The notes under the pieces were generated by a model. It was not told the origin of the DNA. It was given only the letters and a program-made list of their open reading frames with translations, and did not search any database. From a phage, in the sequence record PZ445440.1: a stretch of 64,000 nucleotides of DNA; one strand, 5' to 3'. This document shows, piece after piece, positions 7,569-51,918 of this stretch. The position numbers and the translations under genes were made by a program. How positions within the stretch are numbered: the first letter of the stretch is position 1; every line of letters begins with the position of its first letter.

Positions 7569-8669
7569 TTACGCTGTGAAGATTTTATCCCACATCGCAA
7601 CAACTGCATCTCGATTATACTTCTTCCATACTGCTTCAGCACGTTTAACTCGAGCTTCGTATGTGTCAGTGAATTCTAATACAGCTTTTGTGTAAAGCGC
7701 AACTACTTCTTTCTTAGGAGTAGAGGAATCAATTTCTACACGCACAGTATCTGGGTCGTATTCGAATGTCGCATGAGGATAATCCTTAAAAACTAACTGG
7801 ATTACAGGGACACCTTTAGAGATGGCTTCAATAGAACTATTCTCTACCGTACCTGTGTCAGGACACGTATTAATAAGTGCTTTAGCTGTTTTAAGACGTT
7901 CCATGATTTCACTGTGTGGAGCATCAATAATAACAGGATACTTAGCCGGTGGTGCCCATTTGCTTGGACAGTATCCTGCACCATTTTCGCCTAGTGCTTT
8001 AATCGCTTCAAGAGCAACATCAGTACGACGCATTTTAGTGTCATAACGTTGTGCACTAATAATCAGATCAGTCGCCGGAAGAACTTCAGGTTTCTCATTC
8101 AAACAAATAACTGGATAATCTTCGGCTTCAAACAACGGATTTGCTCGCCAATAATCATAATCAATTTTGTCAGTCAGACCTGAAGTCATATAACAATATT
8201 TGCGTTCAAATTCACGGAAGGCTTTAGTAGGAGCATAACTCTTACCACCATTCTTATGAATTTGAATAGTCTGGTCCCAAATTTGAACAATGCCACGAGA
8301 TACCGGTTCAAATGGTGTTGCCATAAAATTCTTATGAACTTTAGAGAGACCTGCGTCTTTAATTGCCTGAACGGTTAGTTTAGTCGGTTCCGTAGTAACA
8401 ACAAAATCGTATTCATGGATGTCGGCTAGTTCAACAATCTTACGAGCCATAGTATAACTCATACCTAGACTGAATTTAGTCAGATGACCAACAGGATGAT
8501 GATTAACTTTCCAGTCACCAAACGTGTCATTATCAAAACCGATATAATCAATATCGGCACCAATAGAAACTAAATATTTCAACACATTTAAATGTACTGC
8601 TTCAAGACCACCTTGTACACGTTCTGGGTTAAATGGGACTGCGCGCGATGGGATAAACATAACTTTCAT
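7569..8669 (-). CDS. GT-B fold glycosyltransferase, candidate DNA (hmC) arabinosyltransferase
   Basis: 366 aa; C-terminal GTVENSSIEAISKGVPVI resembles the GT1/GT4 nucleotide-sugar binding motif; occupies the T4 gene 60/mobA slot; no T4 counterpart. Confidence 0.6.
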   Translation of the reverse strand: MKVMFIPSRAVPFNPERVQGGLEAVHLNVLKYLVSIGADIDYIGFDNDTFGDWKVNHHPVGHLTKFSLGMSYTMARKIVELADIHEYDFVVTTEPTKLTVQAIKDAGLSKVHKNFMATPFEPVSRGIVQIWDQTIQIHKNGGKSYAPTKAFREFERKYCYMTSGLTDKIDYDYWRANPLFEAEDYPVICLNEKPEVLPATDLIISAQRYDTKMRRTDVALEAIKALGENGAGYCPSKWAPPAKYPVIIDAPHSEIMERLKTAKALINTCPDTGTVENSSIEAISKGVPVIQLVFKDYPHATFEYDPDTVRVEIDSSTPKKEVVALYTKAVLEFTDTYEARVKRAEAVWKKYNRDAVVAMWDKIFTA

Positions 8670-20322: not shown

Positions 20323-20844
20323 TTAGTAACCATTATCCTGACGTTCAAAGTTGTGTTGGTTTTTCAGATAATACAGTTTGAAGATTTCTTCAGCAGAAAG
20401 TCCTAGACCTTGGAACATATTCAGAACAAAGTGGAGGATATCAATCATCTCGAATTTAATTTCAAGCTGGTCTTCAGGAGACAGTTCATCGATACGACGA
20501 TTTCGATATTCAGCATGTTGTGCTTTCCAAGGCTTCCATACAGAGCTAGCGGCTTTTTCACCATTGCTCATACCGCCGAGTGAAGTCAGCAGTTCACGGA
20601 ATTCATCATCAATATAATCTTTCTGATTACGCAGCCAATCAACAACATCACCAGCAGTAGCCAATTCATCAGGATGTTTGTTATGTTCAGGCTTGTCATT
20701 TGCCAGACGAACCTGTAAAGATTTCTGCATATCAAGCATTACCTGCAGTGGGTCTTTATCTTCGTGAATCAGAGCATTAAAATAAGCTTCTTCTGCTTTA
20801 TCAACACCAGAAATAAGTTGTGAACATTCGTTAAAGTGTGCCAT
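20323..20844 (-). CDS. 56: dCTP pyrophosphatase gp56 (MazG-like)
   Basis: 173 aa from MAHFNE... with AAGGA SD (T4 gp56 about 171 aa as I recall); synteny between soc and gene 61. Confidence 0.75.
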   Translation of the reverse strand: MAHFNECSQLISGVDKAEEAYFNALIHEDKDPLQVMLDMQKSLQVRLANDKPEHNKHPDELATAGDVVDWLRNQKDYIDDEFRELLTSLGGMSNGEKAASSVWKPWKAQHAEYRNRRIDELSPEDQLEIKFEMIDILHFVLNMFQGLGLSAEEIFKLYYLKNQHNFERQDNGY

Positions 20845-23535: not shown

Positions 23536-23821
23536 CTGTGATTTCGGTTACGATATCTTTGTTATCGAAATTAGGGTCACAATACAAAACATAGTTGTAT
23601 TGCATGATACCACCAGACTTAAGTTGTTCAACAACTTTATTAACCATATTAGGACGGTCTCGTTTAGTGATGTTCATGATATCAGAGAAGATTTGTTGTT
23701 CAACATCTTCTTGATTTGCAGTCATTGACCACTCACAGAGGTCTTTATCATAACCTGCCGTAACTGGAGCCGGTGCACATGATACTGCAAGTAAGATTGC
23801 TGCCAATGATAACTTTTTCAT
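23528..23821 (-). CDS. sp: Spackle-like periplasmic protein (signal peptide)
   Basis: 97 aa, same length as T4 Sp as I recall; N-terminal signal peptide MKKLSLAAILLAVSCAPAPVTAG; AAGGAG SD. Confidence 0.65.
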   Translation of the reverse strand: MKKLSLAAILLAVSCAPAPVTAGYDKDLCEWSMTANQEDVEQQIFSDIMNITKRDRPNMVNKVVEQLKSGGIMQYNYVLYCDPNFDNKDIVTEITGE

Positions 23822-23850
23822 TTTAACTCCTTAGTTGATTTGATAGGACT

Positions 23851-23880
23851 ACTATACTATAGTCCATCTATAATGTAAAC
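23851..23880 (-). promoter_or_regulatory. T4-type early promoter; -10 within inverted repeat GGACTA/TAGTCC
   Basis: Minus GTTTAC (23880-23875), 18-bp spacer, TATAGT. Confidence 0.5.
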
Positions 23881-23884
23881 AAAT

Positions 23885-24133
23885 TTATTCTTTTTCGCGA
23901 ATAATAATTACTTGTTGAGGCTGCTGAGCCGATTTCTTTTCGGCAACGATAGACCAAATTAAAGTTCCAATCCAACCAACCATCGTCCAGTTAAAGAGTA
24001 AAGATACAAAGAAGATTGCTGTTGTGCTTTTTGTGCCACGAATAAGTGCGATTACCCAAGGCAACATGTAAATGATGATTGAACCAATACCTGCGATTAA
24101 AACTGCTACTGAACTAGCTACGAATAATTCCAT
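23885..24133 (-). CDS. small integral membrane protein (82 aa, two TM helices)
   Basis: Hydrophobic segments VAVLIAGIGSIIIYMLPWVIALI and IFFVSLLFNWTMVGWIGTLIWSIV. Confidence 0.65.
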   Translation of the reverse strand: MELFVASSVAVLIAGIGSIIIYMLPWVIALIRGTKSTTAIFFVSLLFNWTMVGWIGTLIWSIVAEKKSAQQPQQVIIIREKE

Positions 24134-24194
24134 GTTAATTTCCTCTTGATTTGTTATGTTTATAGTATCTTATTTTAACTTTGGTGTAAACCAA

Positions 24195-24563
24195 TTAATT
24201 AAATTTGTTTAAACGTTCAATACACTGCACGTAGTTATTCGCGATTTGTTTCTGGGTAGGCTCTTTACCAGTTGTTTCAACATAGCGAATGAATGCGATT
24301 TCAGTAGCCTGTAAGCAATGTTCTTTAACGCGCTGTTCTTTTGACATAGCTACAGTATCAGAATCACGATATCGTTGAGCATGAGCATCAGCTTGAATCA
24401 TTCGATTACCTACAGTAACCGGGTCTTCCACTTCAACTTTAGGTTGGTCATACTGTTTAACATTAGGATTGTAAATCAATTGGCCAACGTTATTAGGGAT
24501 AAAGCCATGGGCACCACATCCGGTTAATCCAAATACCATTGCTAAAGCGATTAATTTTTTCAT
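24195..24563 (-). CDS. putative lipoprotein (122 aa)
   Basis: Signal peptide with lipobox MKKLIALAMVFGLTGC. Confidence 0.65.
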   Translation of the reverse strand: MKKLIALAMVFGLTGCGAHGFIPNNVGQLIYNPNVKQYDQPKVEVEDPVTVGNRMIQADAHAQRYRDSDTVAMSKEQRVKEHCLQATEIAFIRYVETTGKEPTQKQIANNYVQCIERLNKFN

Positions 24564-24632
24564 TTCAATTTCCTCTGTAGTTGATATAAAGATAGTAACA
24601 CAGTATGTAGTGCTTGTAAACAGTTTTTAAAA

Positions 24633-24821
24633 TTATCGAAAATCTGCTTCGAAAACTTTCTCGTCATTAACAAATGCTTTAACTAATGCGTTGTTCACTT
24701 CAGCAAGTTGTACCGCAACCCACTCGATTTCTTCGCGATCTCCTGATAACATGATATCTTTAGTGAACATCTCACCGCTTTTAAACCAACCGATAAAAGT
24801 AACTTTAGTTAATTTGCTCAT
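24633..24821 (-). CDS. hypothetical protein (62 aa)
   Basis: ORF in gene array. Confidence 0.55.
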   Translation of the reverse strand: MSKLTKVTFIGWFKSGEMFTKDIMLSGDREEIEWVAVQLAEVNNALVKAFVNDEKVFEADFR

Positions 24822-25135
24822 ATTTCCTCACAGAACGCCCATTCAGCATGATAAACTGTAGCGCCTTTAGTAACATTCATTTGAACTACATCTACCGGAG
24901 AAATTACTCGATAGAGACGTGGTTCACCTCCATAAGAGCGTGCCGCTCGTCCTGCATAAATCTTTGCTAAACCTATATCTTCAGTAAAGAATACACGATC
25001 CAAGTTTTTCTTACGTCCTGTTTCAGACAGAACTCCTGTTTCTTCAGGAGGACAAAGCATGTTTTCGATGTTAGCTGAACTACTTGAACCGTGATAAAAA
25101 ATCTTAAATTCTGCTTTACAATCGATGGTTTTCAT
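24818..25135 (-). CDS. hypothetical protein (105 aa)
   Basis: ORF with upstream promoter. Confidence 0.6.
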   Translation of the reverse strand: MKTIDCKAEFKIFYHGSSSSANIENMLCPPEETGVLSETGRKKNLDRVFFTEDIGLAKIYAGRAARSYGGEPRLYRVISPVDVVQMNVTKGATVYHAEWAFCEEI

Positions 25136-25161
25136 TTTGTTCTCCAGTAGTTGATAGGTCT

Positions 25162-25190
25162 ATAATAACACAACTACTGGAGAAGTAAAC
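25162..25190 (-). promoter_or_regulatory. T4-type early promoter (GTTTAC-N17-TATTAT)
   Basis: Plus ttgataggtctataataacacaactactggagaagtaaac. Confidence 0.5.
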
Positions 25191-25565
25191 TTAAAAATGT
25201 AATTTAGATACATCTGCGTTGATTTCGGTTTGGTTTGCGTCATATGCAATTAAACGAACCGCTTTAGATGGGTCATTCAATGCATAGAAATGATGGAACA
25301 TTGCTCGAACGATATCACCATTTACGAGTTCTACCTGGATAGGAGAACCTTTTTCGAGTTGGAAATGTTCATAAGCTTTGATGGTTCGTAGATAATCAAG
25401 TTTTTGATTTCCAGCTCCAACGATTTGTACGATACGTTTGCCCATGTTTTCCATACGAGATACAATAGTTTTAGGAGCAAGAATAACGTAGGTTGCCAGC
25501 GGAGAAACTACTTCAACAGTTGTGTTTTCGGTGATTGCAGTAAAAATTGCTTGAGACATATTCAT
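25191..25565 (-). CDS. hypothetical protein (124 aa)
   Basis: ORF in gene array. Confidence 0.6.
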   Translation of the reverse strand: MNMSQAIFTAITENTTVEVVSPLATYVILAPKTIVSRMENMGKRIVQIVGAGNQKLDYLRTIKAYEHFQLEKGSPIQVELVNGDIVRAMFHHFYALNDPSKAVRLIAYDANQTEINADVSKLHF

Positions 25566-25620
25566 AATGTTTTCCTCTTGGTTGGTGTAAGTACATCATA
25601 TCATGCCTAGAGGAAGATGT

Positions 25621-25650
25621 AAACCCCGAAAGGAGACCGAAGTCTCCTTT
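25621..25650 (-). terminator. hairpin terminator after gene 41 (GGAGAC-UUCG-GUCUCC)
   Basis: Plus ggagac-cgaa-gtctcc flanked by T/A-rich runs on both sides (possibly bidirectional). Confidence 0.5.
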
Positions 25651-25653
25651 TTA

Positions 25654-27096
25654 TTAAAATTTTAACTCATTGGCTAAGCTATCTAGGTCAGCACGTGTTG
25701 CTTTGGCTTTACCTACGCGTTCCGTACGATTCACCTCTGCCTGACGCATCTGAGCACCTGCGTTTTCATTTACTGTGTTAGGTGTGTTCATGCCTTCTTG
25801 CTCAATCTCAATCCATTTCTGGTTGCCTTTACGTACACCCATCAGGAATTTATTCCACTTATTCTTATCACCATATCGTGATTTGATTTGTTTGATAAGT
25901 TGTTGTTCAGCTTGTGCAAGTTCTTCGGTTTCAATTACAGCCAACATGAAATCTGCCGTTGCTGGTAAACCTGCTGATTCTGCGATATCACTCATGTTCA
26001 TGTCTGAAGCATCCCATGCTGCACGTCCTACTTGAGCTGCAGTCCATAGAACTGTTTCAGATTCTACTGCTAATGCACGAAGTTCTTCTGCGATAGCTTT
26101 AACTAATGTGTAGCTATTTTCAGTGTAAACTCTGATACGACAAGACCCGCAAATACCTAAGTAATCAACCATGATTACAGATGGCACAAAGTTCTTCTTA
26201 AGTTTTAACTCATTAAGCAATGCACGAAATGTATTAGCATTAGCTCCACCAGTAGGATACTGTTTAACTACTAAACGTCCTAATGTGGATTTTGAACGCC
26301 ATTTTTCCATCTTGGCTTTATATTCAGCATAAGATACGTTACCATCATCAATATCATCAAGTGATACGTCAAGCATGTTTGCATCTATACGCTTAGCACA
26401 AACTTCTTCAGCCATTTCCATGGAAATATAAAGAACATTATGACCTGTTTGAAGATAATCTGCAGCAAGTGAACAAAGGCCTAAAGATTTACCAACGTTA
26501 ACACCTGCCATTAAAACATTCAGTGTACCGGTTTCAGCACCACCTTTAGTGATTTTATTCAGAATGTTTAATTTGAACGGGACCTTACGTGCTTTGTTCA
26601 GATAAGAAAGCCAGCGTGCTTCATAGTCTTCCATCCAGTCATGCCCAACATAACTATCAAACGAAATTGAAAGTGCTTGACGCATAATATCAGGAATAGC
26701 TCCTACGTCAGGCATTTTCTTGTTACGTTGTTCTGGAGGTAGTTCAGCATTAGACTGAATCTCAATGATTTTGGATGTAGCATTATACATCGCTTTTTGC
26801 TGGACATATTTCTCAGTTTCTTTAACCAACCATTCGTGGTCTTCAGGAGTATCAGCCAATTTTTCAATTAGGTCTGAAGTTCCTTTATATTCGGCTTCAG
26901 TTAAAGAACTGTTATCTAAAGCCACCTTTAATGCATTGATAGATGGCATTGCATTATATTCGTTAACGTGGCTCTTTATAATTTTAAAGACATTTTTTGC
27001 CGGTCCACGCTCAAAATACTCAGAATCCATATAAGGCCAGACCTTAGAAAAATAAGCCTGGTCGTATACTAGATGAGACAAAATAATTTCTACCAC
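25654..27096 (-). CDS. 41: replicative DNA helicase gp41 (DnaB family)
   Basis: 480 aa (T4 gp41 475 aa as I recall); Walker A GVNVGKS, DnaB-like motifs; synteny. Confidence 0.9.
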   Translation of the reverse strand: MVEIILSHLVYDQAYFSKVWPYMDSEYFERGPAKNVFKIIKSHVNEYNAMPSINALKVALDNSSLTEAEYKGTSDLIEKLADTPEDHEWLVKETEKYVQQKAMYNATSKIIEIQSNAELPPEQRNKKMPDVGAIPDIMRQALSISFDSYVGHDWMEDYEARWLSYLNKARKVPFKLNILNKITKGGAETGTLNVLMAGVNVGKSLGLCSLAADYLQTGHNVLYISMEMAEEVCAKRIDANMLDVSLDDIDDGNVSYAEYKAKMEKWRSKSTLGRLVVKQYPTGGANANTFRALLNELKLKKNFVPSVIMVDYLGICGSCRIRVYTENSYTLVKAIAEELRALAVESETVLWTAAQVGRAAWDASDMNMSDIAESAGLPATADFMLAVIETEELAQAEQQLIKQIKSRYGDKNKWNKFLMGVRKGNQKWIEIEQEGMNTPNTVNENAGAQMRQAEVNRTERVGKAKATRADLDSLANELKF

Positions 27097-28710: not shown

Positions 28711-29259
28711 TTAACGAGCCCATTTGATGATTTCTGTAATCAAATCATTACGTTCGCTTGCATTAAATCCTATAACTTTGTTAGCACCATCATGATTAAG
28801 TAATTGATACGTTTGGATTTTGTTATGAATTGCAAACTCTTCAAAATGTGAAATGACTGTATTAAAACCGAATGAAGACAAAGTAATAAGGTCGTCTTCA
28901 AAACTTTCAGTCATTTCGTTACGTGTTAAAATAATTGTGAACACATCATGGTTTTGGCAAAGACGAATATAATCCTGTTCATAAACGTCAAGAACCGAGT
29001 CCGCATCTTGTCGAATACGTCCATAAACCCAGTTACTAATATACCCACGGTCTAACAGATAAATCTTAGTAGGGTCTAAATAATTCAACATCGTTTCGAA
29101 ACAGCCAACTTCGTTTCGAGACTTAACATCGAAACGCCCATCAACTGTTCGTTTAGGGAAATCAATCTTTACATATCTTTCACTAATTTCCATTACGTCA
29201 TTAATGAAAGTTGTTTTACCAGCATTATCCGGGCCGTCTACTAAAATAATTTTAGCCAT
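28711..29259 (-). CDS. P-loop nucleotide/nucleoside kinase-like protein (thymidylate-kinase-like fold)
   Basis: 182 aa; Walker A ILVDGPDNAGKTT and a DRGY motif (YLLDRGYISNWVYG) reminiscent of dNMP kinases; GAGGAA SD; sits in the T4 beta-gt slot. Confidence 0.6.
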   Translation of the reverse strand: MAKIILVDGPDNAGKTTFINDVMEISERYVKIDFPKRTVDGRFDVKSRNEVGCFETMLNYLDPTKIYLLDRGYISNWVYGRIRQDADSVLDVYEQDYIRLCQNHDVFTIILTRNEMTESFEDDLITLSSFGFNTVISHFEEFAIHNKIQTYQLLNHDGANKVIGFNASERNDLITEIIKWAR

Positions 29260-29260
29260 T

Positions 29261-30160
29261 TTATTCCTCGATTACGACATCTTCGTATTTAGGTATATTA
29301 TACGGTGAAGAAATTAAAGCATTAAAGTAGATGAACTCACCAAGACCTGGATGGAATACTTCTTCAGGATTTTCGAAATATTGAATCTTCGGACGTCCTT
29401 TAAGAATTTGATAGTACTCAGTTTTAGTTGGTTTAAAAATTCGAATCAGCGCTTCTTCAGGATACTTATTTCTGTCGAAGCTATTATTTGGATCGGTTAT
29501 ATAAAGCGGTTGACCTAATTGAATTGCACATTCAACCACTTGTTCAAAACGATAGCATGGGTCACTAATTCGAAATGGATGAAAAATACCATCTAGATGA
29601 ATAGGAGCCAAATCACCTACAAGACGCTGCATGATGGAAGGACGTATAACTTTCTGGGTTATGATAATCTTATTACCATCGGCACCTGCGTTAACCAGCA
29701 CTTCTTTTTGACGTTCATTCAACACAGTAGTTTGAAGTGAACGATTAACAGACAACATATCGGTTTTTAAGAATTCGTCAATATAAAAACGTGGTTTATT
29801 AGGGTCTGCAGTGATATTGAAATTGAATTCTACATCAAAAGCGCCGTCATATCCAGTGATATCTGTGATTAGAAAATCACAATCATAATAAGCAATTAAT
29901 GAATCAACCACAAATTCATTTTCAGACCAGAAATATTTACGAGTGTTATACGCGTTATCTTTATACCATAATGGAACAAACTTAAATTCTGGGAAAAGAC
30001 GTTCACATTCTTTAATATCAGATGCATTACGTGGATATGTAATCACATCACCCGGATTAGCACGGTGCAAATGAAGTTGGAAGTTGCCATCCTTAAGGAT
30101 AGCATACTGTCCAGTTTCATAAGACCGCATACTCAAGATAGGTACGCGGAAAATAGCCAT
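29261..30160 (-). CDS. hypothetical protein (299 aa), candidate novel DNA sugar-transferase
   Basis: No recognisable motifs; translationally coupled to gene 42 (stop/start overlap); occupies the beta-gt position. Confidence 0.6.
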   Translation of the reverse strand: MAIFRVPILSMRSYETGQYAILKDGNFQLHLHRANPGDVITYPRNASDIKECERLFPEFKFVPLWYKDNAYNTRKYFWSENEFVVDSLIAYYDCDFLITDITGYDGAFDVEFNFNITADPNKPRFYIDEFLKTDMLSVNRSLQTTVLNERQKEVLVNAGADGNKIIITQKVIRPSIMQRLVGDLAPIHLDGIFHPFRISDPCYRFEQVVECAIQLGQPLYITDPNNSFDRNKYPEEALIRIFKPTKTEYYQILKGRPKIQYFENPEEVFHPGLGEFIYFNALISSPYNIPKYEDVVIEE

Positions 30161-30876
30161 TAGTCAAGGAATCCTTTAACATAATCAAAATCACGTTCAA
30201 ACACATGGGCACTTACCATGGTATGAGTATAATCACCAACTTCTACACCACATTCGTTAGCGATATAATGAAGTAATTTTCCTTGGAGATAAAAATCCAA
30301 CTGCATAACAACAGCACAGTTCTGAGAACGCATATGACAGTGGGTATAAAGCTTACCATCACGAATATAATAAGTCACTGAGTCAGTACATGGATATTCA
30401 AGCGTTTCGTCTGAATCAAGCAAAGCCTGATCAGAACTTTCTAGAATTTGGAACACAACTCTTCGAGAGTTAGGCTTCTCTTTAAGTTCTTTTAGAAGAG
30501 CTGGTAATTGGGCCGCAATGCGAGGACCGTAGAAAGTGTTGAAGTTCGCAGGCAAAGCATCTGATTTTGGTTTAGAAATAAATTTAGCGACATTAGGATA
30601 TGCCTTAAACGCTTCTTCTGCATCAGTACCACCAGAAATCATAAACTTCCAGAAGTCTTCGGCATATTCATAAGAGATGCGGTTAATACGTGGGTCGGTC
30701 ATTTTGAATGATGATGGAGTGTCAACAACTACTGTCATAGACCCAATTTCATTACAACGTCCAATACGAGAATCAGTTACGAATTCCGGGTTTTCTAAAA
30801 TTTCACGATTGACTGCTTTAAATGCGGTTTGAAAATCTGCGGCTTTGATATATTTCATTGTGTTATGTTTTCCCAT
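30160..30876 (-). CDS. 42: dCMP hydroxymethylase gp42 (thymidylate synthase family)
   Basis: 238 aa; thymidylate-synthase-like region HCHMRSQNCAVVMQLDFYLQ; synteny upstream of the uvsX block. Confidence 0.7.
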   Translation of the reverse strand: MGKHNTMKYIKAADFQTAFKAVNREILENPEFVTDSRIGRCNEIGSMTVVVDTPSSFKMTDPRINRISYEYAEDFWKFMISGGTDAEEAFKAYPNVAKFISKPKSDALPANFNTFYGPRIAAQLPALLKELKEKPNSRRVVFQILESSDQALLDSDETLEYPCTDSVTYYIRDGKLYTHCHMRSQNCAVVMQLDFYLQGKLLHYIANECGVEVGDYTHTMVSAHVFERDFDYVKGFLD

Positions 30877-30918
30877 GTTTACCTCAATACAATTTATTAT
30901 ATACTCGATTCGTAAAGC

Positions 30919-31158
30919 TTATTTGAATTTCTTGGCAGTGTTGATATACCGTAAAGCTTCAGCATCGATACTTCCAAGAACACTATGAAGAAATGCATCA
31001 GCGTAGTATTCTAATTGAACAGGTTCTTTAATCACTTTAGCCGCTTTGGTTTCAAACAGGCCCATCAGGGCCTTTTTAAGAATTTGTTCGTTGCTGTTAA
31101 TTTTAATAGTCAAAATCTCTTCATTAAGTTGGTGGTTAAAAGTTTTTCTAGAAATCAT
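30919..31158 (-). CDS. hypothetical protein (79 aa)
   Basis: ORF with ATGA overlap to upstream gene. Confidence 0.55.
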   Translation of the reverse strand: MISRKTFNHQLNEEILTIKINSNEQILKKALMGLFETKAAKVIKEPVQLEYYADAFLHSVLGSIDAEALRYINTAKKFK

Positions 31159-32315
31159 TCCGGGTACCTCAAAGCGTCGTCAGAGTTAGTTATATCAATA
31201 ATAGATATAGAATTTTCTGATAACCCATTTTTAGATAACTGACGTTTATAATATCTTTCACAATATGTACACGTCGTCCCGCAGATTTCATTAGCACAAT
31301 CGAAATCTGGATGTCTGAACCACCTTTTTTCTAAAAAGCCATCTAACAAAGAGGTTTCAATATTTACTGTATGTGAAAACTCAGTTTCGTTTTCAAGAGT
31401 GAAAATAGTCTCTAAAGGCTTCCACAGTTCTAACAAATTACCTTCAAACTTTTCAGAAGCGTATGCTTCAAGAACTTTCAAAATGTAGTCTGTGCTACCT
31501 GTACGTCCTGAAACTTTGAATTGAGTGATACCAATATCATTATAAAGTTTCAAATCTTGGGGACGAACAAAACGAGTTCTCAACCAGTTAAATGGGTCTG
31601 TATCACGAGCTTTAATACAGTGCTGCATTGGATACCCGTTTAAGGATTTAGCATCATCAGCTGTAACATCAGTACTATGGAAAATATAGCAAGAGTCACG
31701 ATAGCTACAATGTGTTGTATACCCTTTACCAGCATTAGAACAGAACTCATTTACAAGAACTTCAAATATTATATTGTTCTTATTGCAAAACTCTGCTGCA
31801 CGCTTCAGGAAAGAAACTGAACGGTTCTTATGAATTCCACAGCAGACCTTTTTGATATTATATTGGTCATGCAAGTATTTGATTTGAGTTACAGCATCGA
31901 CATGTAGAATTGTTGAAACTTCAATCTCAATGTCTTTATTGACTTCACGAACAATTTCCATAACAACAGGGTTAGCGATAGTAATACGCCATACGCCTAT
32001 TGACCAAAGATACTGAACATAATCCTGAATAGCTTTCTTCTTCCACTCAACTAGTTCTCTTTTTGAACCAGGATTTATCGTGTTGAGTGTATAGTTAAAG
32101 CAAATACCTAATTCGTTACAACGTTTAACGTAATCTTCTAACATCTTTTTGTCAACGTCAGGAAGCCTAAAATCAGGTCTGGCTGCTACAAAAGCCATTT
32201 CTCTTGTAGAGCCGTATACTTCATTTATCAAGCTATTAGGATAAGTTTTATTGAGCTCTACGATTTTATCAAGAAGAGCTAAATCAAAATTCGTTCCGAT
32301 TTTAAAAGTATTCAT
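31155..32315 (-). CDS. Cys-rich protein of unknown function (386 aa); weak peptidase-U32-like resemblance
   Basis: Cys clusters (EVLVNEFCSNAGKGYTTHCSYRDSCY; CANEICGTTCTYC); loose resemblance to the U32 signature region; not verifiable without a profile search. Confidence 0.6.
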   Translation of the reverse strand: MNTFKIGTNFDLALLDKIVELNKTYPNSLINEVYGSTREMAFVAARPDFRLPDVDKKMLEDYVKRCNELGICFNYTLNTINPGSKRELVEWKKKAIQDYVQYLWSIGVWRITIANPVVMEIVREVNKDIEIEVSTILHVDAVTQIKYLHDQYNIKKVCCGIHKNRSVSFLKRAAEFCNKNNIIFEVLVNEFCSNAGKGYTTHCSYRDSCYIFHSTDVTADDAKSLNGYPMQHCIKARDTDPFNWLRTRFVRPQDLKLYNDIGITQFKVSGRTGSTDYILKVLEAYASEKFEGNLLELWKPLETIFTLENETEFSHTVNIETSLLDGFLEKRWFRHPDFDCANEICGTTCTYCERYYKRQLSKNGLSENSISIIDITNSDDALRYPE

Positions 32316-32371
32316 TTTTTTGCATCTCGCGTTAATTGATGCGATGGTTTTTGCAGGTCTTACTTAAATTA

Positions 32372-32758
32372 TTATAGATTCGGTTTATATGATTTAAATG
32401 TTTCGAATTCGCCTTTATTCATAAGAGCTTTGAATTCGTCAGGACGCATAGCTTTGTCGTCGATAATCCAATCATATACTGGTTTATGTGTTAGCAAATT
32501 ATGGTACTTCAATCCAATGTTTGCTAAGTTCTGAATCAGACTTGGGAGAATGTCGATTGCTATACGACCAGGACCTACTGACTTCATACCGCGAGCAGTG
32601 TAAAGCGTTATGGTATGCCCTGCATCATACAGGGCATTAATGGCAGACACCATTTCGACGTCTGGTTTGAAGTTCACATAATCACGGTTGTTATTCCACT
32701 CTGTTATACAATCATCGACATCAAAACAAAGATTAAGCATGTTTTCTACACGGTGCAT
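32372..32758 (-). CDS. HAD-superfamily phosphatase (small, cap-less)
   Basis: Motif I FDVDDCI, motif II ITLYTARG, motif III/IV K...DWIIDDKA; ATG overlaps the stop of the upstream NTase/kinase gene. Confidence 0.7.
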   Translation of the reverse strand: MHRVENMLNLCFDVDDCITEWNNNRDYVNFKPDVEMVSAINALYDAGHTITLYTARGMKSVGPGRIAIDILPSLIQNLANIGLKYHNLLTHKPVYDWIIDDKAMRPDEFKALMNKGEFETFKSYKPNL

Positions 32759-34443
32759 TAGATTCGTTCCCATTGATGAGTGATATCGCCACCGATTGGA
32801 CGATAGGAAACACCAGTTTCTTTATCAGTTAGTACCCATTTACCAGGATTTTTTGTAATAAGAGTAGCCGTTACAGGTTCTGCTACGTCATAACTAATAG
32901 AGCCGTCTTGAAGTACACGGCCCATGTTACGTAATTGCTTAGTCAGAAGTTCCATACCTTTATAATATGCGGCTACCGCTTTAAGTGGATTATTCTTGAA
33001 ATAACCACCTAATGCAATCCAGATAATTGCCACCGCCAAATGATGATACTCGTTAAACGAACTCATCTTTCCATATTTGTAAATTAATGGATTGATGTTA
33101 ATAGTCACATTACAAGTTGTTTCATCAATAGTAAACTGTCCCCAGGTCGGATTAGCATTGAATTCATCATAACCTGAAACAGCGTAAAGCACTTTAGCTT
33201 CATCGTACAATTTTGGCCCGTAAATCTTGGTTTCACCAAAATATCCACGAGGGTCGATAAACTTGACTTCGCCATTATCAGTAATCATAGTATTACTGAA
33301 GTTCGGGTCACCATGAATAACAGAGTACTGTCCCTGAGAACGGTTATGATAACGAATAAGGTGTTCTAAAGCTTGTTTCAACATTGGCTTCAGACGTCCA
33401 ATCTTAGTGTAGTTCACATGTGTGATTTTACCAAATGAATCAATCAATGGTTGAATGCTTTCACAACGATCAATAACTTTCGTATAGAATTCTTTAGTGA
33501 AATCACGACGGACAGTTTCAGGACTTACAAAATAAGTGTCTGTGCTGAATTTCAGTGCATCTAAAATTGCATCAACAATTTGTGGACGAGCAAGACTTGA
33601 TTTGGATTTAATATATTCAAATGCCGGCTTACCTTTAATGCGTTCCATTTCAAAGTTATTTTCATTAACAGAAACTAACTGAGGAACTGAATCTGATTTC
33701 ACTTTCAAGTACCACGAAATCTCATCTTTCTGAAGAGCTCGACCCTGTTCGGTTAATGCGAATTTAGTTACAGTTTCTTCACCAATTTCAACTGCATTAA
33801 AACTACGATTAAGTTCACGAACTTCATGAGCTTTTTCAAGTTTAGGCATATCACCTAAATCAATTAGATTCATAAGCTCTGATTTATTGAATGCGCCGCT
33901 GTAAAGGAATTCTACGAAATCACGTCCTTTGCAGTATTCATGAATTTCCTCATCAGTAGAACCCATATAGAATTCCCAGTCTTTGAACTGATAAATTCCT
34001 ACAACATTACCGCCTGTTGCACCTACATTAGTGATATTTTCACCGTCGAAATTATATCGACATTCGTCACCCTTAACATAGATTGCGTTAACATTCCAAG
34101 ACCATGAACCAAAATCAGGAATAATATCACACCAGTTAACAATTACGTTATGGCCGTCTAAATCTTTGTGTAATTTAGCAAGAGCATAAGCAGAACCATA
34201 CGCTTCATCAACTGTACGAATAGTCACATTGAACCCTTCTTGCTCACAATAAGCTCGAACAGTTTCAGCAAATTTTGAATGAACTACTACAATAATTTCA
34301 TCTGCGCCAAGGTCAGAATAAATTGTATACAAATTGCTCAGAATAGTGTCTTGTTTATAGTTAACAAGCACCTTAGGAATATGATGCGTTATTGGATACA
34401 AACGAGTTGCCAGTCCAGCACCAAGAATAACAGCTTTTTTCAT
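32758..34443 (-). CDS. bifunctional sugar-1-phosphate nucleotidyltransferase / anomeric sugar kinase (LicC-like N-domain + APH/choline-kinase-like C-domain)
   Basis: 561 aa; N-terminal MKKAVILGAGLATRLYPITHHIPKVLV (NTP-transferase signature); C-terminal VIHGDPNFSNTMI (Brenner HGDxxxxN) and FIDPRGYFG. Confidence 0.8.
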   Translation of the reverse strand: MKKAVILGAGLATRLYPITHHIPKVLVNYKQDTILSNLYTIYSDLGADEIIVVVHSKFAETVRAYCEQEGFNVTIRTVDEAYGSAYALAKLHKDLDGHNVIVNWCDIIPDFGSWSWNVNAIYVKGDECRYNFDGENITNVGATGGNVVGIYQFKDWEFYMGSTDEEIHEYCKGRDFVEFLYSGAFNKSELMNLIDLGDMPKLEKAHEVRELNRSFNAVEIGEETVTKFALTEQGRALQKDEISWYLKVKSDSVPQLVSVNENNFEMERIKGKPAFEYIKSKSSLARPQIVDAILDALKFSTDTYFVSPETVRRDFTKEFYTKVIDRCESIQPLIDSFGKITHVNYTKIGRLKPMLKQALEHLIRYHNRSQGQYSVIHGDPNFSNTMITDNGEVKFIDPRGYFGETKIYGPKLYDEAKVLYAVSGYDEFNANPTWGQFTIDETTCNVTININPLIYKYGKMSSFNEYHHLAVAIIWIALGGYFKNNPLKAVAAYYKGMELLTKQLRNMGRVLQDGSISYDVAEPVTATLITKNPGKWVLTDKETGVSYRPIGGDITHQWERI

Positions 34444-34484
34444 GTTGTGGTCCTCATTGGTAAGTAGAAGTATTGTACACTATT

Positions 34485-34628
34485 CTAGTTAAAGCATTCA
34501 TACTTCGCTTGTAGTCCAATCATAATCCATCCAATTACAAGTGTTGGAATCATTACTGGAGCCGTTAAGCTCCAGTAGATAGTCATGACAAGCATCAATA
34601 GTAAAAGTCCTATTGTTATTGTTTTCAT
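34485..34628 (-). CDS. small membrane protein (47 aa)
   Basis: Hand translation MKTITIGLLLLMLVMTIYWSLTAPVMIPTLVIGWIMIGLQAKYECFN; ATGA overlap with the isomerase stop. Confidence 0.4.
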   Translation of the reverse strand: MKTITIGLLLLMLVMTIYWSLTAPVMIPTLVIGWIMIGLQAKYECFN

Positions 34629-35260
34629 TGTTCGCCTCGTAACATGGCACCTAGTGCGCCGCCTGGATGGAACTTAAGGAAATCATTAGAGGTAAATCCA
34701 CGTTCAGACGAAAGGTTGATAGCGAACGTATCGATAAGCGCTAACAACAATGTAGTAGACATTGTCGGAGCTAAAGAGTTCTCGTCAACTTCTACCGCGA
34801 TACCGGTACAGAACGTATAATCAAAAAGAGCTTCGTATTCTTGTGGAATGTCAGGGTTACAATGTAACAGAATCTGTTTAACCTGAGGACGAATCATACG
34901 AAGATGTTTAGCAACACCTATCATTTCTTCAGTCTTACCAGAACGACTGATGTGAACTAATACATCATTAGGTGCAATAAATCCTGCGTCGCCATGAGAA
35001 TAATGCCCGGTGTTCAAGTACATACTCGGGATACCTAGTGAAGCAAAAGTCTCGGAAGCTTTAGTTGCGATATTAGCATTCTTACCAACACCTGTAATAA
35101 TTACACGACTTTCGTAATTACTCAGTCCAGGGCGACGAAGAGTTTCAAGAATAGCATTATATCGGGCAGGGTTTTGACTAATTATTTTAGCCATAGTGGC
35201 AAGAGATGAAGCTTGTTTTACGATTGCGTCAATAGCGATAGTGATTGGTGTAGTTTTCAT
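34625..35260 (-). CDS. D-arabinose-5-phosphate isomerase, SIS domain only (KdsD/GutQ/KpsF-like, no CBS pair)
   Basis: 211 aa; strong similarity to E. coli KdsD SIS domain from memory: GVGKNANIATKASETFASLGIPS, HGDAGFIAPNDVLVHISRSGKTEE, LAPTMSTTLLLALID, HPGGALG. Confidence 0.85.
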   Translation of the reverse strand: MKTTPITIAIDAIVKQASSLATMAKIISQNPARYNAILETLRRPGLSNYESRVIITGVGKNANIATKASETFASLGIPSMYLNTGHYSHGDAGFIAPNDVLVHISRSGKTEEMIGVAKHLRMIRPQVKQILLHCNPDIPQEYEALFDYTFCTGIAVEVDENSLAPTMSTTLLLALIDTFAINLSSERGFTSNDFLKFHPGGALGAMLRGEQ

Positions 35261-40068: not shown

Positions 40069-40755
40069 TTAGAAGTCGTGGGTAGAATCGGCTTCCATCG
40101 CAATAACATAACTTACTTGAGAGCTTTCAAACTTGGCTGCAACTTTATCACCAGCTCCCCACAACATTACTTTATAGTTACCTGGCTGGATTTTCATATT
40201 AGCCATATTGATTACGAAGTTAAAGTTGTTAGAACCATCATAATCGGTAAGAGTCAAAGAATACTTAGGACGAGTTAGTCCAGAATCTTCAACTTTATTA
40301 TAGCCATTGATAACAATTTTACCATCTTTATTTGTAATAGCAATTGTATCAATCTGAAGACCACGTGAAACTCGAAGCAATTGTTGAAGGTCTTCGGCTT
40401 TAATTTCAGTAATCACAGAAGCCACTGGGAATTGAATTGGCTTATTAGGAAAAACAATGGTGCTCTTGTCAGCGGCAGGCCAATAAACTGTGGAACGTGT
40501 ATCTGCAATTTTAATATTGCCATCAGTGTGCATTGAAATTTCAGCATCATCAGACACTAGACTCAAAATGCTTAAGAAGCTATTCAAATCATAAAGTGCT
40601 ACGTCAAAATCAATTTCATCAGAGATATTTGCTTCCGCATAAGTGGTGCCATTAACTGCACGAGTCATAATAAATTTACCTTGACTCAGCAGAATACCGG
40701 AGTTAATAGAGGCAAAGTTTTTCAGAATAGCGATAGTATCTTTAGACAGTTTCAT
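40069..40755 (-). CDS. 45: sliding clamp gp45
   Basis: 228 aa from MKLSKDTIAILKNFASINSGILL...; matches T4 gp45 from memory. Confidence 0.9.
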   Translation of the reverse strand: MKLSKDTIAILKNFASINSGILLSQGKFIMTRAVNGTTYAEANISDEIDFDVALYDLNSFLSILSLVSDDAEISMHTDGNIKIADTRSTVYWPAADKSTIVFPNKPIQFPVASVITEIKAEDLQQLLRVSRGLQIDTIAITNKDGKIVINGYNKVEDSGLTRPKYSLTLTDYDGSNNFNFVINMANMKIQPGNYKVMLWGAGDKVAAKFESSQVSYVIAMEADSTHDF

Positions 40756-49633: not shown

Positions 49634-50104
49634 TTAATCATGTTTCCACACCCCATCGGTATTTGACCAAAGTCGCTGATTATCTGATCCTCGCCACAGC
49701 TTTTTAGTCGGAAGATTTTTCTCATACTTCCCATCAATAATAACATCAACATATTTAAGCATTTCTAGTTGTTTAATATCTTCAAACTTATATCCTGTCC
49801 ACAACCAAATGCTTTTATTGGGATAAAGATTTTTTACTGTTTGAGCAATGCGATGAATAACATCTCGGTTATCAGGATAGAGAGGGTCACCTCCGGTTAT
49901 AGTTAATCCTTCTATATAATCATTATTCAAACATTCAATTAATTGTTCTAGTGTTTCACCGGTGAATGGAACACCATTTCTAGCATTCCATGTTGATTTA
50001 TTATAACACCCTTCACATTTATGCAAACAACCTGTAACGAAAAGAACGACCCTGCAACCAGGGCCATTCACAAAATCGCAAGGATAAAATCTATCATAAT
50101 TCAT
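49634..50104 (-). CDS. nrdG: anaerobic ribonucleotide reductase activating protein NrdG (radical SAM)
   Basis: 156 aa; CxxxCxxC-like cluster GCLHKCEGCYN; overlaps nrdD start by 4 nt. Confidence 0.85.
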   Translation of the reverse strand: MNYDRFYPCDFVNGPGCRVVLFVTGCLHKCEGCYNKSTWNARNGVPFTGETLEQLIECLNNDYIEGLTITGGDPLYPDNRDVIHRIAQTVKNLYPNKSIWLWTGYKFEDIKQLEMLKYVDVIIDGKYEKNLPTKKLWRGSDNQRLWSNTDGVWKHD

Positions 50105-51918
50105 TGGTGTTTAACCCTATGCATGATTTCTTTATTTTTGCCTAGATTAAATCCGCGTTCGTTTGGATTTCCCAAATAACCGCATGTTCTTCTTATTGTG
50201 TTCATCTTTTTAGGATCAGTTTCTCCGCAAACTGAACAAACAAATCCATTTTCAGTAGGAGTCATTTCATGAGTACTTCCGCATGTAAAACATTTATCTA
50301 CTGGCATATTAACACCAAAATAATCTAAATGTTGTGCAGCATAATCCCAGACAGCCTCAAGTCCTTTTAAGTTATTTTTCATATCAGGAAGTTCAACATA
50401 AGAAATGTGACCACCTGTCGCAATGAAATGATATGGCGCTTCACGAGAAATCTTTTCAAACGGAGTAATATTTTCTTCTACTGAAACATGGAAACTATTA
50501 GTGTACCAGCCTTTATCGGTAACATCTTTTACGCTTCCATATTTTTCTGTATCGAGTTTACAAAAGCGATAACAAAGGTTTTCAGCAGGAGTAGAATATA
50601 AACTAAAAGCAAATCCGGTTCTTTCAGTCCACTGTTTAAGATGAGCATTCATTTTAGTTAAAATTTCTTGTCCAATATCACGACCGACAAGAATATTCAA
50701 TTCGTGAATACCGATGTATCCCAAAGACACTGAACTTCTACCATTTTTAAATAACTCAATTATGTCATCATCAGGTTTAAGACGAACCCCGAATGCACCT
50801 TCTTGGTAAAGAATAGGAGCAACAGTAGCTTTAACTCCTTTTAAGGAACTAATTCTACACATCAAGGCTTCAAAACACAGGTCCATTCGCTCGTCGAACA
50901 ATTCAGTAAATTTCTGTTCATTGAACTGTGTTCCAATATAAGAATCTAATGCGATACGAGGAAGATTCAGTGTTACAACACCGAGATTATTACGTCCATC
51001 AAGAATTTCATTACCAGTCGAATCTTTCCATACGCTCAAGAAACTACGGCAGCCCATTGGAGAAACTGGAACTGAAGAACCGGTAATAGCTTTATTATTC
51101 TTAACCGAAATAATGTCAGGATACATTCTTTTGCTTGCACATTCTAACGCAAGTTGTTTAATATCATAGTTCGGATCATCTTTATAAAGATTAACACCTT
51201 CTTCAACAAACATAACAAGCTTAGGGAAAATAGGAGTTATTCCATCACGACCAAGACCTTTAATGCGGTTTTTAAGAATTGCCTTCTGAATCATTCGTTC
51301 AGTCCAATCGGTTCCCGTACCAAATGTAATTGTTACAAAAGGAGTTTGTCCGTTTGAACTAAAGAGAGTATTTACTTCATATTCATAAGCTTGGAATGCG
51401 TCATAGACATCTTTTTCTGTTTTAGATTGAGCATAATTCAGAATGTCTGGTATTTGCCATTTTTCTGCATCTTCAACATGTTTAGCGTATGTGCGTTTAA
51501 CATAAGGAGAAAGAACTTTATCGACATTCGCAAATGTAGTTCCGCCATACTGGTGTGAAGCAACTTGCGCGGTAATTTGTGCCATAATTGCAGTAGCAAC
51601 GCCAATTGATTTAGGAGTTTCAATCTGTGCATTACCAAGCTTAAATCCGTTCTCAAGCATTCCTTTTAAATCTACTAAACAGCAATTAGTAAATGGAAGA
51701 GCAGGAGAATAATCAATATCATGCATGTGAATGATTCCGCTTTCATGCGCATTCATAATAAAAGACGGGACCATATTTTTGGCAATGTGCTTAGACACAA
51801 TACCAGCCATAAGGTCCCGTTGAGTTGGAAAAACACGAGAATCTTTATTAGCATTCTCGTTCAAAAGATCTTTATTAGTTTTATGAATTAATCCTTCAAT
51901 TTCTTTTTCAATTTTCAT
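50101..51918 (-). CDS. nrdD: anaerobic ribonucleoside-triphosphate reductase NrdD (intron-less)
   Basis: 605 aa continuous ORF; C-terminal glycyl-radical region and CxxC zinc ribbon (CFTCGSTHEM...CSVCG). Confidence 0.9.
   Translation of the reverse strand: MKIEKEIEGLIHKTNKDLLNENANKDSRVFPTQRDLMAGIVSKHIAKNMVPSFIMNAHESGIIHMHDIDYSPALPFTNCCLVDLKGMLENGFKLGNAQIETPKSIGVATAIMAQITAQVASHQYGGTTFANVDKVLSPYVKRTYAKHVEDAEKWQIPDILNYAQSKTEKDVYDAFQAYEYEVNTLFSSNGQTPFVTITFGTGTDWTERMIQKAILKNRIKGLGRDGITPIFPKLVMFVEEGVNLYKDDPNYDIKQLALECASKRMYPDIISVKNNKAITGSSVPVSPMGCRSFLSVWKDSTGNEILDGRNNLGVVTLNLPRIALDSYIGTQFNEQKFTELFDERMDLCFEALMCRISSLKGVKATVAPILYQEGAFGVRLKPDDDIIELFKNGRSSVSLGYIGIHELNILVGRDIGQEILTKMNAHLKQWTERTGFAFSLYSTPAENLCYRFCKLDTEKYGSVKDVTDKGWYTNSFHVSVEENITPFEKISREAPYHFIATGGHISYVELPDMKNNLKGLEAVWDYAAQHLDYFGVNMPVDKCFTCGSTHEMTPTENGFVCSVCGETDPKKMNTIRRTCGYLGNPNERGFNLGKNKEIMHRVKHQ

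Follow-up and report, generated by a model that had tools for sequence, protein, structure and literature searches.

The minus-strand gene at positions 31155-32315 of a 64,000-nucleotide stretch of phage DNA (sequence record PZ445440.1; "the window" here means this whole stretch) encodes a 386-amino-acid (aa) protein of the peptidase U32 family. With moderate confidence, we read this protein as an iron-sulfur (Fe-S), prephenate-dependent enzyme that, without using O2, adds a hydroxyl group at C5 of a cytosine deoxynucleotide (dCMP being the most likely one). It would thus be the anaerobic isozyme of the thymidylate synthase (TS)-like 5-hydroxy-dCMP synthase, whose gene lies two genes away. The observations behind this reading concern the family and fold of the protein, its conserved ligand sets, the linkage of its gene to others, the displacement of the TS-type gene in distant loci, and the phyletic pattern.

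A broader proposal is that the protein represents a family of O2-independent, prephenate-dependent deoxynucleotide hydroxylases, found almost only in phages and in the genomes of anaerobes, and that it is the first U32 enzyme to act on a DNA precursor. Here, our belief falls slightly short of our doubt. A literature search joining U32 with chorismate mutase, or with 5-hydroxycytosine/phage, found no paper that draws such a link, with two directly relevant papers from 2025-2026 lying outside its reach.

Family, Fold, and Cysteine Sites

The first-pass annotation of the window found no clear family for the 386-aa protein, while noting that it loosely resembled U32 proteins. The first statement was wrong, and the second too modest. 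Pfam PF01136 (Peptidase_U32) matches residues 94-286 with 42.2 bits against a gathering score of 22.4 (E = 7e-11). In hhalign, a profile of 78 subfamily sequences matches a small RlhA/TrhP/UbiU profile with 97.5% probability (E = 3e-11, 286 columns). When single E. coli paralogs are the targets, RlhA ranks highest (81.6%), followed by TrhP and then UbiU; UbiV alone gives no match. A search of the PDB with the sequence gives no match. A search with a predicted structure, which the first-pass annotation had proposed as a check, does: the AlphaFold2 model built from the subfamily alignment (pLDDT 92.5, pTM 0.91) has the U32 barrel and finds 5D88, a U32 protein, as its top match.

The protein is not simply one of the known paralogs. 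No NCBIfam equivalog fits it; the UbiU model scores 18.5 bits against a cut-off of 440, the TrhP model does not match the window protein, and its homologs P0038 and P0111 score 11.8 and 11.7 bits with that model (cut-off 534). PF01136 is the only Pfam domain, and DUF3656, which would mark an RlhA ortholog, was not found by Pfam. A full hidden Markov model search of 1.84 billion cluster representatives returned 483 members at E <= 1e-30 (clusters at 50% identity); relaxing the limit to E <= 1e-3 raised this to just 1,702. By these comparisons, the protein is best placed in a separate, divergent U32 subfamily.

Thirteen of its residues (3.4%) are cysteines. The two clusters of these already remarked upon in the first-pass annotation, FCSNAGKGYTTHCSYRDSC (residues 191-209) and CANEICGTTCTYC (residues 340-352), are real: C192, C203, C209, C233, and C340/C345/C349/C352 are 100% conserved in 121 homologs, at identities down to ~48%. 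A wider set holds 126 full-length representatives of 50%-identity clusters. Here, C192 is kept in 99%, C203 and C233 in 100%, and the four C-terminal cysteines in 94-95%. Position 209 holds Cys in 59% of them and His in 40%, the kind of exchange expected if this residue binds metal. C158 (57%) and C177 (13%) are poorly kept in the same set, and are therefore unlikely ligands.

The profile alignment places C203, C209, and C233 on Cys1, Cys2, and Cys4 of the RlhA Fe-S ligands (C169, C176, and C196), and H213 on a conserved His. C192 is carried by a 10-residue insertion specific to the subfamily. It may replace the canonical Cys3, giving the pattern CX10CX5CX23C. The protein would then have two four-ligand sites. 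A [4Fe-4S] cluster would sit at the core site (C192, C203, C209, C233), while the C-terminal CX4CX3CX2C would form a second metal center, which may serve as an electron relay in the manner of the second UbiU-UbiV cluster. On this analogy, one chain carrying both sites could correspond to the two-cluster UbiU-UbiV heterodimer.

The C-terminal spacing also admits another reading, as C345-x3-C349-x-Y-C352 fits the radical SAM motif CX3CX(aromatic)C. This was set aside, finding no support in Pfam or in the fold search. PADLOC gives no match for the window protein or for its Phocaeicola homolog.

U32 Chemistry and the Nearest Known Systems

RlhA is required for 5-hydroxycytidine at C2501 of 23S rRNA, and needs both prephenate synthesis and Fe-S biogenesis. 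TrhP is needed for ho5U34 in tRNA, in a reaction that depends on prephenate but not on O2; the unrelated TrhO does likewise using O2. UbiU/V are the anoxic stand-ins for the flavin monooxygenases UbiI/H/F, with prephenate identified as the oxygen donor by 18O labeling. UbiU and UbiV each carry one [4Fe-4S] on four cysteines, some of them relocated (UbiU C232, UbiV C39), in a two-cluster heterodimer. Thus, the chemistry of the family is O2-free C5 hydroxylation of pyrimidines, together with aromatic-ring hydroxylation, using the product of chorismate mutase.

The closest of these systems to the phage protein is RlhA (YdcP). It shares the U32 domain, is the best single-sequence profile match, aligns at Cys1, Cys2, Cys4, and the following His, and hydroxylates cytosine at C5, as we propose for the phage protein. 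However, RlhA is a 653-aa protein with DUF3656 that acts on a ribosomal precursor; the phage protein has 386 aa, lacks that domain, is only ~20% identical, and differs in its extra 10-residue insertion with C192, in having no canonical Cys3, and in its C-terminal CX4CX3CX2C. TrhP (YegQ) and TrhO offer the logic proposed here, an O2-free U32 enzyme and an unrelated O2 enzyme for one 5-hydroxypyrimidine, although the substrate is tRNA and TrhO, the partner that uses O2, is a rhodanese and not a TS homolog. UbiU-UbiV, likewise of the U32 family, is the anaerobic counterpart of flavin enzymes and has relocated fourth ligands; unlike the single phage chain with two putative Cys4 sites, it is a heterodimer that needs the lipid carrier UbiT. 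Mk0906, the Methanopyrus kandleri U32 "peptidase" of PDB 5D88, is 14% identical and covers the barrel but not the C-terminal Cys4 module.

The proposed partner, the TS-like 5-hydroxy-dCMP synthase (RB69 gp48, DLP3 gp80, and the HY126 enzyme), would share product and pathway with the U32 protein. It has, however, the thymidylate synthase fold, a flavin, and oxygen that comes from O2, and its activity is experimental while the role of the U32 protein is inferred.

The Window Locus and Its Modified Base

The window is 100% identical in sequence to Escherichia phage ChristianSchoenbein (Bas46, MZ501056.1), a Mosigvirus and relative of RB69. On the minus strand, the genes run in the order DNA polymerase, SIS isomerase, a 47-aa open reading frame (ORF), sugar kinase/nucleotidyltransferase, HAD phosphatase, U32, a 79-aa ORF, TS homolog, glycosyltransferase, Tmk-like kinase, and UvsX. 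The features that matter here, in the cluster and elsewhere in the window, are as follows.

34625..35260, minus strand: SIS-domain arabinose-5-phosphate isomerase, RB69 gp55 homolog
32758..34443, minus strand: bifunctional sugar kinase and nucleotidyltransferase, AfhE / RB69 gp52:53 homolog (Pfam NTP_transferase; weak APH-like kinase matches)
32372..32773, minus strand: HAD-type phosphatase, AfhF / RB69 gp51 homolog, UDP-arabinose route
31155..32315, minus strand: U32-family protein, 386 aa, single ORF with ATG start; bas46_0144; RB69 gp50 homolog
30919..31158, minus strand: 79-aa ORF, phrog_8601; its ATG overlaps the U32 stop (ATGA); no Pfam match
30160..30876, minus strand: TS homolog, equivalent of the 5-hydroxy-dCMP synthase RB69 gp48 (Pfam Thymidylat_synt)
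29261..30160, minus strand: glycosyltransferase, 299 aa, RB69 gp46:47 homolog, proposed as the first arabinosyltransferase on DNA 5-hydroxycytosine
28711..29259, minus strand: thymidylate-kinase-like nucleotide kinase, RB69 gp45 homolog
20323..20844, minus strand: dCTPase/dCDPase, with RB69 gp28 as counterpart
7569..8669, minus strand: second DNA arabinosyltransferase, RB69 gp3 homolog
50101..51918, minus strand: NrdD, anaerobic class III ribonucleotide reductase
49634..50104, minus strand: NrdG, activase of the anaerobic ribonucleotide reductase

In RB69 and in Acinetobacter phage DLP3, the DNA carries arabinosylated 5-hydroxycytosine, not hydroxymethylcytosine; RB69 gp48, the TS homolog, is a flavin-binding enzyme that makes 5-hydroxy-dCMP with oxygen drawn from 18O2 (Lee et al., NAR 2026, PMC13326640). 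Cytosine alone is reported to be replaced in these two DNAs. Bas46 DNA is reported to contain 5-arabinosyl-arabinosyl-hydroxycytosine, and the Bas46 transposon preprint has no gene-level data. The earlier placement of the U32 gene inside a DNA-modification island holds, with the product of the cluster being an arabosyl-5-hydroxycytosine rather than a derivative of hydroxymethylcytosine.

The sugar part of the pathway appears to be complete. As Lee et al. (PMC13326640) summarize the work of He et al., AfhE and AfhF convert arabinose 5-phosphate to UDP-arabinose, which leaves the sugar route without an unassigned step. A literature search on the Afh gene names turned up unrelated papers only. 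RB69 gp50, the U32 homolog, appears in Lee et al. (PMC13326640) as a table entry only, as a "sugar or heterocycle reductase" with a 5D88 match and no discussion. The record labels bas46_0144 a "putative enzyme involved in UDP-arabinose biosynthesis," and other phage records call it a peptidase, a collagenase, or hypothetical.

Two other labels in the record deserve comment. The gene at 30160-30876 is annotated "dCMP hydroxymethylase," although it has the L143E, D169N, N177D signature of 5-hydroxy-dCMP synthases (per Lee et al.). Here, L143E comes from the alignment, while D169N and N177D were read by eye in the R166-S167 register, as MAFFT put that stretch 2 residues off. The label "hmC-arabinosyltransferase" at 7569-8669 is outdated, since the base is 5-hydroxycytosine, not hydroxymethylcytosine.

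Genes for Prephenate Supply Beside U32

Homologous loci were gathered in a set of 18 T4-like and 48 distant loci, the latter being 35 viral or metagenomic and 13 from genome assemblies (L numbers are our handles for loci). The gene that follows U32 in two phages, LC53 of Serratia and Entb_45 of Enterobacter, overlaps it by 4 bp and encodes an AroQ chorismate mutase (CM_2 E = 1.7e-11 and 2.4e-10). A chorismate mutase stands directly after U32, or one small gene further, in 14 of the 18 T4-like loci, and these mutases keep the EcCM catalytic residues R11, R28, K39, S84, and Q88.

In the 48 distant loci, U32 is 40-55% identical, and nine of these loci also have shikimate-pathway genes close to it. 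In six of the nine (L037, L039, L040, L041, L051, L064) a DAHP synthase is fused to a chorismate mutase. The L037 fusion matches DAHP_synth_1 (4e-25) and CM_2 (5e-20), its best NCBIfam model being bifunctional DAHP synthase/chorismate mutase and not KDO8P synthase. Coordinates are as follows.

DAHP synthase-chorismate mutase fusions, jumbo-phage contigs: L037:8411-9433, L040:7302-8357, L041:8332-9387, L051:11079-12197, L064:8931-9959

Two further loci (L010, L026) have a DAHP synthase alone, and all eight DAHP synthase genes lie no more than two genes from U32. L061 has a stand-alone chorismate mutase 2.2 kb downstream of U32.

It is hard to explain why two mutase architectures should be tied to one U32 subfamily in unrelated phages unless prephenate is used. 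We infer from this linkage that enzymes of the subfamily use prephenate. The DAHP synthase and the chorismate mutase, catalyzing the first and a late shikimate step, would be an auxiliary pair that pushes host carbon toward prephenate.

The small ORF next to U32

The stop codon of U32 and the start codon of the 79-aa ORF overlap (ATGA), and the two are therefore probably translationally coupled. The family of this ORF (phrog_8601) has the motif YYxDAFxHSxxGxIxAExxRHINxAKR, and stands between U32 and the chorismate mutase in Yersinia phages (L019, L021) and in L027. The product could be an accessory factor of the U32 enzyme. In LC53, an N-terminal "INHxMNE" segment of the family is seemingly fused to the mutase.

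Might the 79-aa protein itself be a degenerate chorismate mutase? Its position and length match those of the Entb_45 mutase, to which it is 27% identical. Neither Pfam nor NCBIfam gives a chorismate mutase match for it, and the positions of R11 and R28 in the Entb_45 protein are N and K in the 79-aa ORF (in an alignment read by eye). The idea was rejected, because CM_2 does not match and because a true mutase stands side by side with the ORF in the Yersinia phages and in L027.

Displacement of the TS-Type Hydroxylase

A TS-type hydroxylase lies within 2 kb of U32 in all 18 T4-like loci, and within ±10 kb of U32 in none of the 48 distant loci. One TS-like protein, in L028, was considered as a candidate; it keeps L143, D169, and N177, and is an ordinary ThyA. 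Other members of the pathway do recur in the 48 loci: a homolog of the 299-aa glycosyltransferase of the window in 29, the AfhE-like kinase/nucleotidyltransferase in 20, the HAD phosphatase in 16, and the SIS isomerase in 12.

Six distant loci, from jumbo-phage contigs, have a tight, overlapping operon consisting of a Tmk-like kinase, the glycosyltransferase, U32, and Pol III alpha, from which the sugar-activation genes are absent. This operon mirrors the TS-glycosyltransferase-kinase triad of the window, with U32 in the slot of the hydroxylase. As the sugar-activation genes are missing, U32 is separable from arabinose synthesis.

Further neighbors of U32 encode dCMP deaminase, dUTPase, MazG, and UDG. 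On two very large phage-like contigs, one of 466 kb (L007:7447-9086 and L011:7504-9083), the dCMP deaminase gene is immediately upstream of U32, and overlaps it in L007. This raises the possibility that some members of the family act on dUMP rather than dCMP.

Phyletic Pattern

By tblastn, the U32 protein is present in 222 phage records, with every match full length and no identity under 80%; among the listed hosts are only Enterobacterales and Shewanella. The TS-type hydroxylase is found in 374 records; 57 of these are from Acinetobacter phages and 20 from Rhizobium phages, and Agrobacterium phages also occur among them. Phages of these last three genera are absent among the U32 tblastn matches, of which none is below 80%; their TS proteins are 30-70% identical to that of the window. 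Between genera, U32 has the highest identity in the cluster (83-89%); the TS hydroxylase reaches 73-83% and the glycosyltransferase 51-69%.

Some clusters do without U32. In Maestro, a phage of Acinetobacter, nothing separates the HAD phosphatase gene from the TS gene, and in Dhakavirus IME08 the two flank a kinase gene. Neither phage has the U32/79-aa/mutase block, which thus behaves as a discrete accessory module. The IME08 cluster (L074, record 23565-26882), which lacks U32, the 79-aa ORF, and an annotated SIS isomerase and has the Tmk-like kinase between phosphatase and TS, is a rearranged minimal version of the 28711-35260 pathway of the window.

A set of 185,579 species genomes gave only 13 U32 loci, all in anaerobes (twelve metagenome-assembled genomes and one isolate, Phocaeicola faecalis). 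The taxa include Erysipelotrichales, Oscillospiraceae, Romboutsia, Tannerella, Gastranaerophilaceae, Woesearchaeota, and others.

The window itself has a precedent for pairing aerobic with anaerobic enzymes in its NrdD/NrdG genes (49634-51918). For a single step of dNTP supply, T4-type phages have NrdAB, which needs O2, and NrdDG, which does not, although the enzymes and the chemistry are different from those at issue here, and their co-occurrence with U32 is imperfect. The class of ribonucleotide reductase in a phage tracks the oxygen lifestyle of its host. Whole-genome tblastn finds neither NrdD nor NrdG in IME08 or in Acinetobacter phage KARL-1, both of which have the TS gene and lack U32. 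Acinetobacter is not in the top ten genera for NrdD, which sets an upper bound and is no proof of absence.

Proposed Mechanism and Its Weak Points

The oxygen atom of the hydroxyl group would come from prephenate, not from O2. If the mechanism put forward for UbiU/UbiV is a guide, the ring of the pyrimidine would undergo a two-electron oxidation, and prephenate would decarboxylate and deliver hydroxide, leaving phenylpyruvate and CO2. With two synthases, every cytosine could be replaced by arabinosyl-5-hydroxycytosine with or without oxygen. Both enzymes would matter because the dCTPase of the phage destroys canonical dCTP, which makes modified dCTP necessary under all growth conditions.

Several observations weigh against this proposal. 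The direct hydroxylase activity of any U32 protein is still to be reconstituted in vitro. The canonical CX6CX15CX3/4C pattern is present only in part, the position of Cys3 not being Cys. The jumbo-phage contigs were covered for TS-type genes over the 10 kb on either side of U32 only. U32 is wholly absent from some E. coli phages that have the same modification cluster (Dhakavirus IME08), making it an accessory gene. No chorismate mutase is found in the phage of the window, and the same is true of other Mosigviruses, PM2, and Marfa; such a phage would depend on the PheA/TyrA of its host, which are the enzymes that supply RlhA and TrhP in E. coli.

The ribonucleotide reductase genes add to these difficulties. 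U32-positive LC53 retains only a scar of nrdD/nrdG, in which NrdD residues 1-24 are joined to NrdG 126-153, and Yersinia phage TG1, also U32-positive, has neither NrdD nor NrdG in the syntenic 18 kb. The scar (L086:6186-6331, record 40185-40330) is a 42-codon ORF annotated "anaerobic NTP reductase large subunit." The gene is complete in X20, a related phage, so its loss from LC53 is recent, and perhaps came through propagation in air. The host NrdDG can substitute for that of the phage, while the host makes no 5-hydroxy-dCMP; such losses do not, therefore, contradict the model, yet they leave it without a clean correlate. The co-occurrence of NrdDG and U32 being mixed, it is weak evidence only.

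Alternative Explanations

The same chemistry might operate at another substrate level, on cytosine in polymeric DNA after replication or on dCTP/dCDP. We hold this to be unlikely, although the characterized U32 enzymes that hydroxylate pyrimidines act on polymers, and although the C-terminal Cys4 module could be a nucleic-acid-binding zinc ribbon. The dCTPase removes dCTP, so unmodified C would be unavailable for incorporation; the neighboring genes encode mononucleotide enzymes (Tmk-like kinase, dCMP deaminase, dUTPase, MazG, and, in the cellular cassettes, a guanylate-kinase-like fusion); and neither DUF3656 nor the C-terminal domains of RlhA/TrhP are present. There is a similarly small chance that a U32-type redox enzyme works on some other nucleotide-related substrate, turning dUMP into 5-hydroxy-dUMP or carrying out a reductive or non-hydroxylating reaction on a heterocycle. 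The dCMP deaminase immediately upstream in two jumbo-phage loci, the "sugar or heterocycle reductase" of Lee et al. (PMC13326640), and the cellular cassettes that couple U32 with a kinase-methyltransferase fusion would all be at home there. However, cytosine is the one base reported replaced in RB69 and DLP3, the structure of that base calls for no further ring chemistry, and the linkage to chorismate mutase and DAHP synthase points to prephenate-dependent hydroxylation.

The GenBank annotation suggests instead an enzyme of NDP-arabinose biosynthesis or sugar tailoring (a reductase or epimerase). Published annotations name this role, the gene sits between the sugar-activation and the base-modification genes, and the TIM-barrel fold is common in sugar enzymes. 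We nevertheless consider it improbable. AfhE and AfhF already make UDP-arabinose from arabinose 5-phosphate (He et al., as given in Lee et al., PMC13326640), the six distant kinase-glycosyltransferase-U32 loci have no sugar-activation genes at all, and the chorismate mutase would have no apparent role. Moreover, Acinetobacter phages and Dhakavirus have the whole cluster without U32, and the DNA of Maestro and DLP3 is arabinosylated. The first-pass annotation had considered two possibilities, a metal or Fe-S enzyme whose substrate was the nucleotide or the sugar, and a novel transferase. The present evidence favors its metal or Fe-S enzyme with a nucleotide as substrate; the sugar and the transferase are disfavored by these arabinosylated phages whose clusters lack the gene, and by the loci where U32 neighbors a glycosyltransferase in the absence of sugar-activation genes.

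An RNA hydroxylase like TrhP or RlhA, modifying tRNA or rRNA of phage or host to tune translation during infection, would better suit the closest characterized relatives, which are RNA hydroxylases, and T4-like phages do encode their own tRNAs (checked in IME08). Yet IME08 and other tRNA-bearing relatives lack U32, which keeps its place within DNA-modification operons across phage lineages that are unrelated. Further, two homologs score ~12 bits with the NCBIfam TrhP model, far under its cut-off of 534, and DUF3656 is missing. This explanation, too, has little probability. As for a collagenase-like protease, the name under which many phage annotations list the protein, it has the historical family name in its favor and nothing else. 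The U32 "peptidases" have no known catalytic mechanism, characterized members are linked to hydroxylation, and the genomic context is nucleotide metabolism throughout. It can hardly be taken seriously.

Implications

Should the U32 protein be an O2-independent dCMP hydroxylase, it would close a gap. The sole known phage cytosine hydroxylase needs O2, while phages that prey on gut bacteria often meet them where there is none. The U32 hydroxylases would gain a small soluble substrate (such as dCMP), making the chemistry of prephenate as oxygen donor directly testable. The phage-encoded genes for chorismate mutase and DAHP synthase would have a function. Among the uncultured jumbo phages that infect anaerobic bacteria of gut and sediment, many would be expected to have glycosylated 5-hydroxypyrimidine DNA without an enzyme of the thymidylate synthase type. 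Hypermodified DNA in the phages of anaerobes would, in turn, bear on restriction evasion, on sequencing artifacts, and on the choice of therapeutic phages. For the U32 family itself, this would be a new subfamily with a new class of substrate, in a viral setting.

Further Features of These Loci

A 47-aa ORF is conserved at 34485-34628 (minus strand), between the AfhE-like and SIS isomerase genes. Its counterpart in LC53 is annotated with a transmembrane segment, which is odd for a cytosolic sugar-nucleotide operon.

In the genomes of anaerobes, U32 is the last gene of a conserved cassette, following GP88 (PF17338), a fusion of a guanylate-kinase-like domain with a SAM methyltransferase (~420 aa), and a ~270-aa protein.

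Four-gene U32 cassettes: L071:3044-7137, L072:7179-11065, L070:6929-11086, L069, L068, L073, L062, L008:5135-9098

This arrangement suggests a pathway that hydroxylates and then methylates a nucleotide (to a 5-methoxy product, perhaps). The cassette was also considered as a defense system; PADLOC returned only a viperin-like match, to a neighboring radical SAM protein, and a mad2-like match, to the methyltransferase, and the idea was dropped.

Downstream of the cassette in L008 (9116-15428), and also in L062, lie genes for an NT5C deoxyribonucleotidase, a PnuC-like transporter, a deoxynucleoside kinase, and an AlaX-like protein. The same stretch has genes for the radical SAM protein with the viperin-like match (PADLOC pVip, 2e-18), for another protein that weakly resembles U32, and for one like nucleoside 2-deoxyribosyltransferase. 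Taken together, these genes resemble an island for the synthesis or salvage of modified nucleosides.

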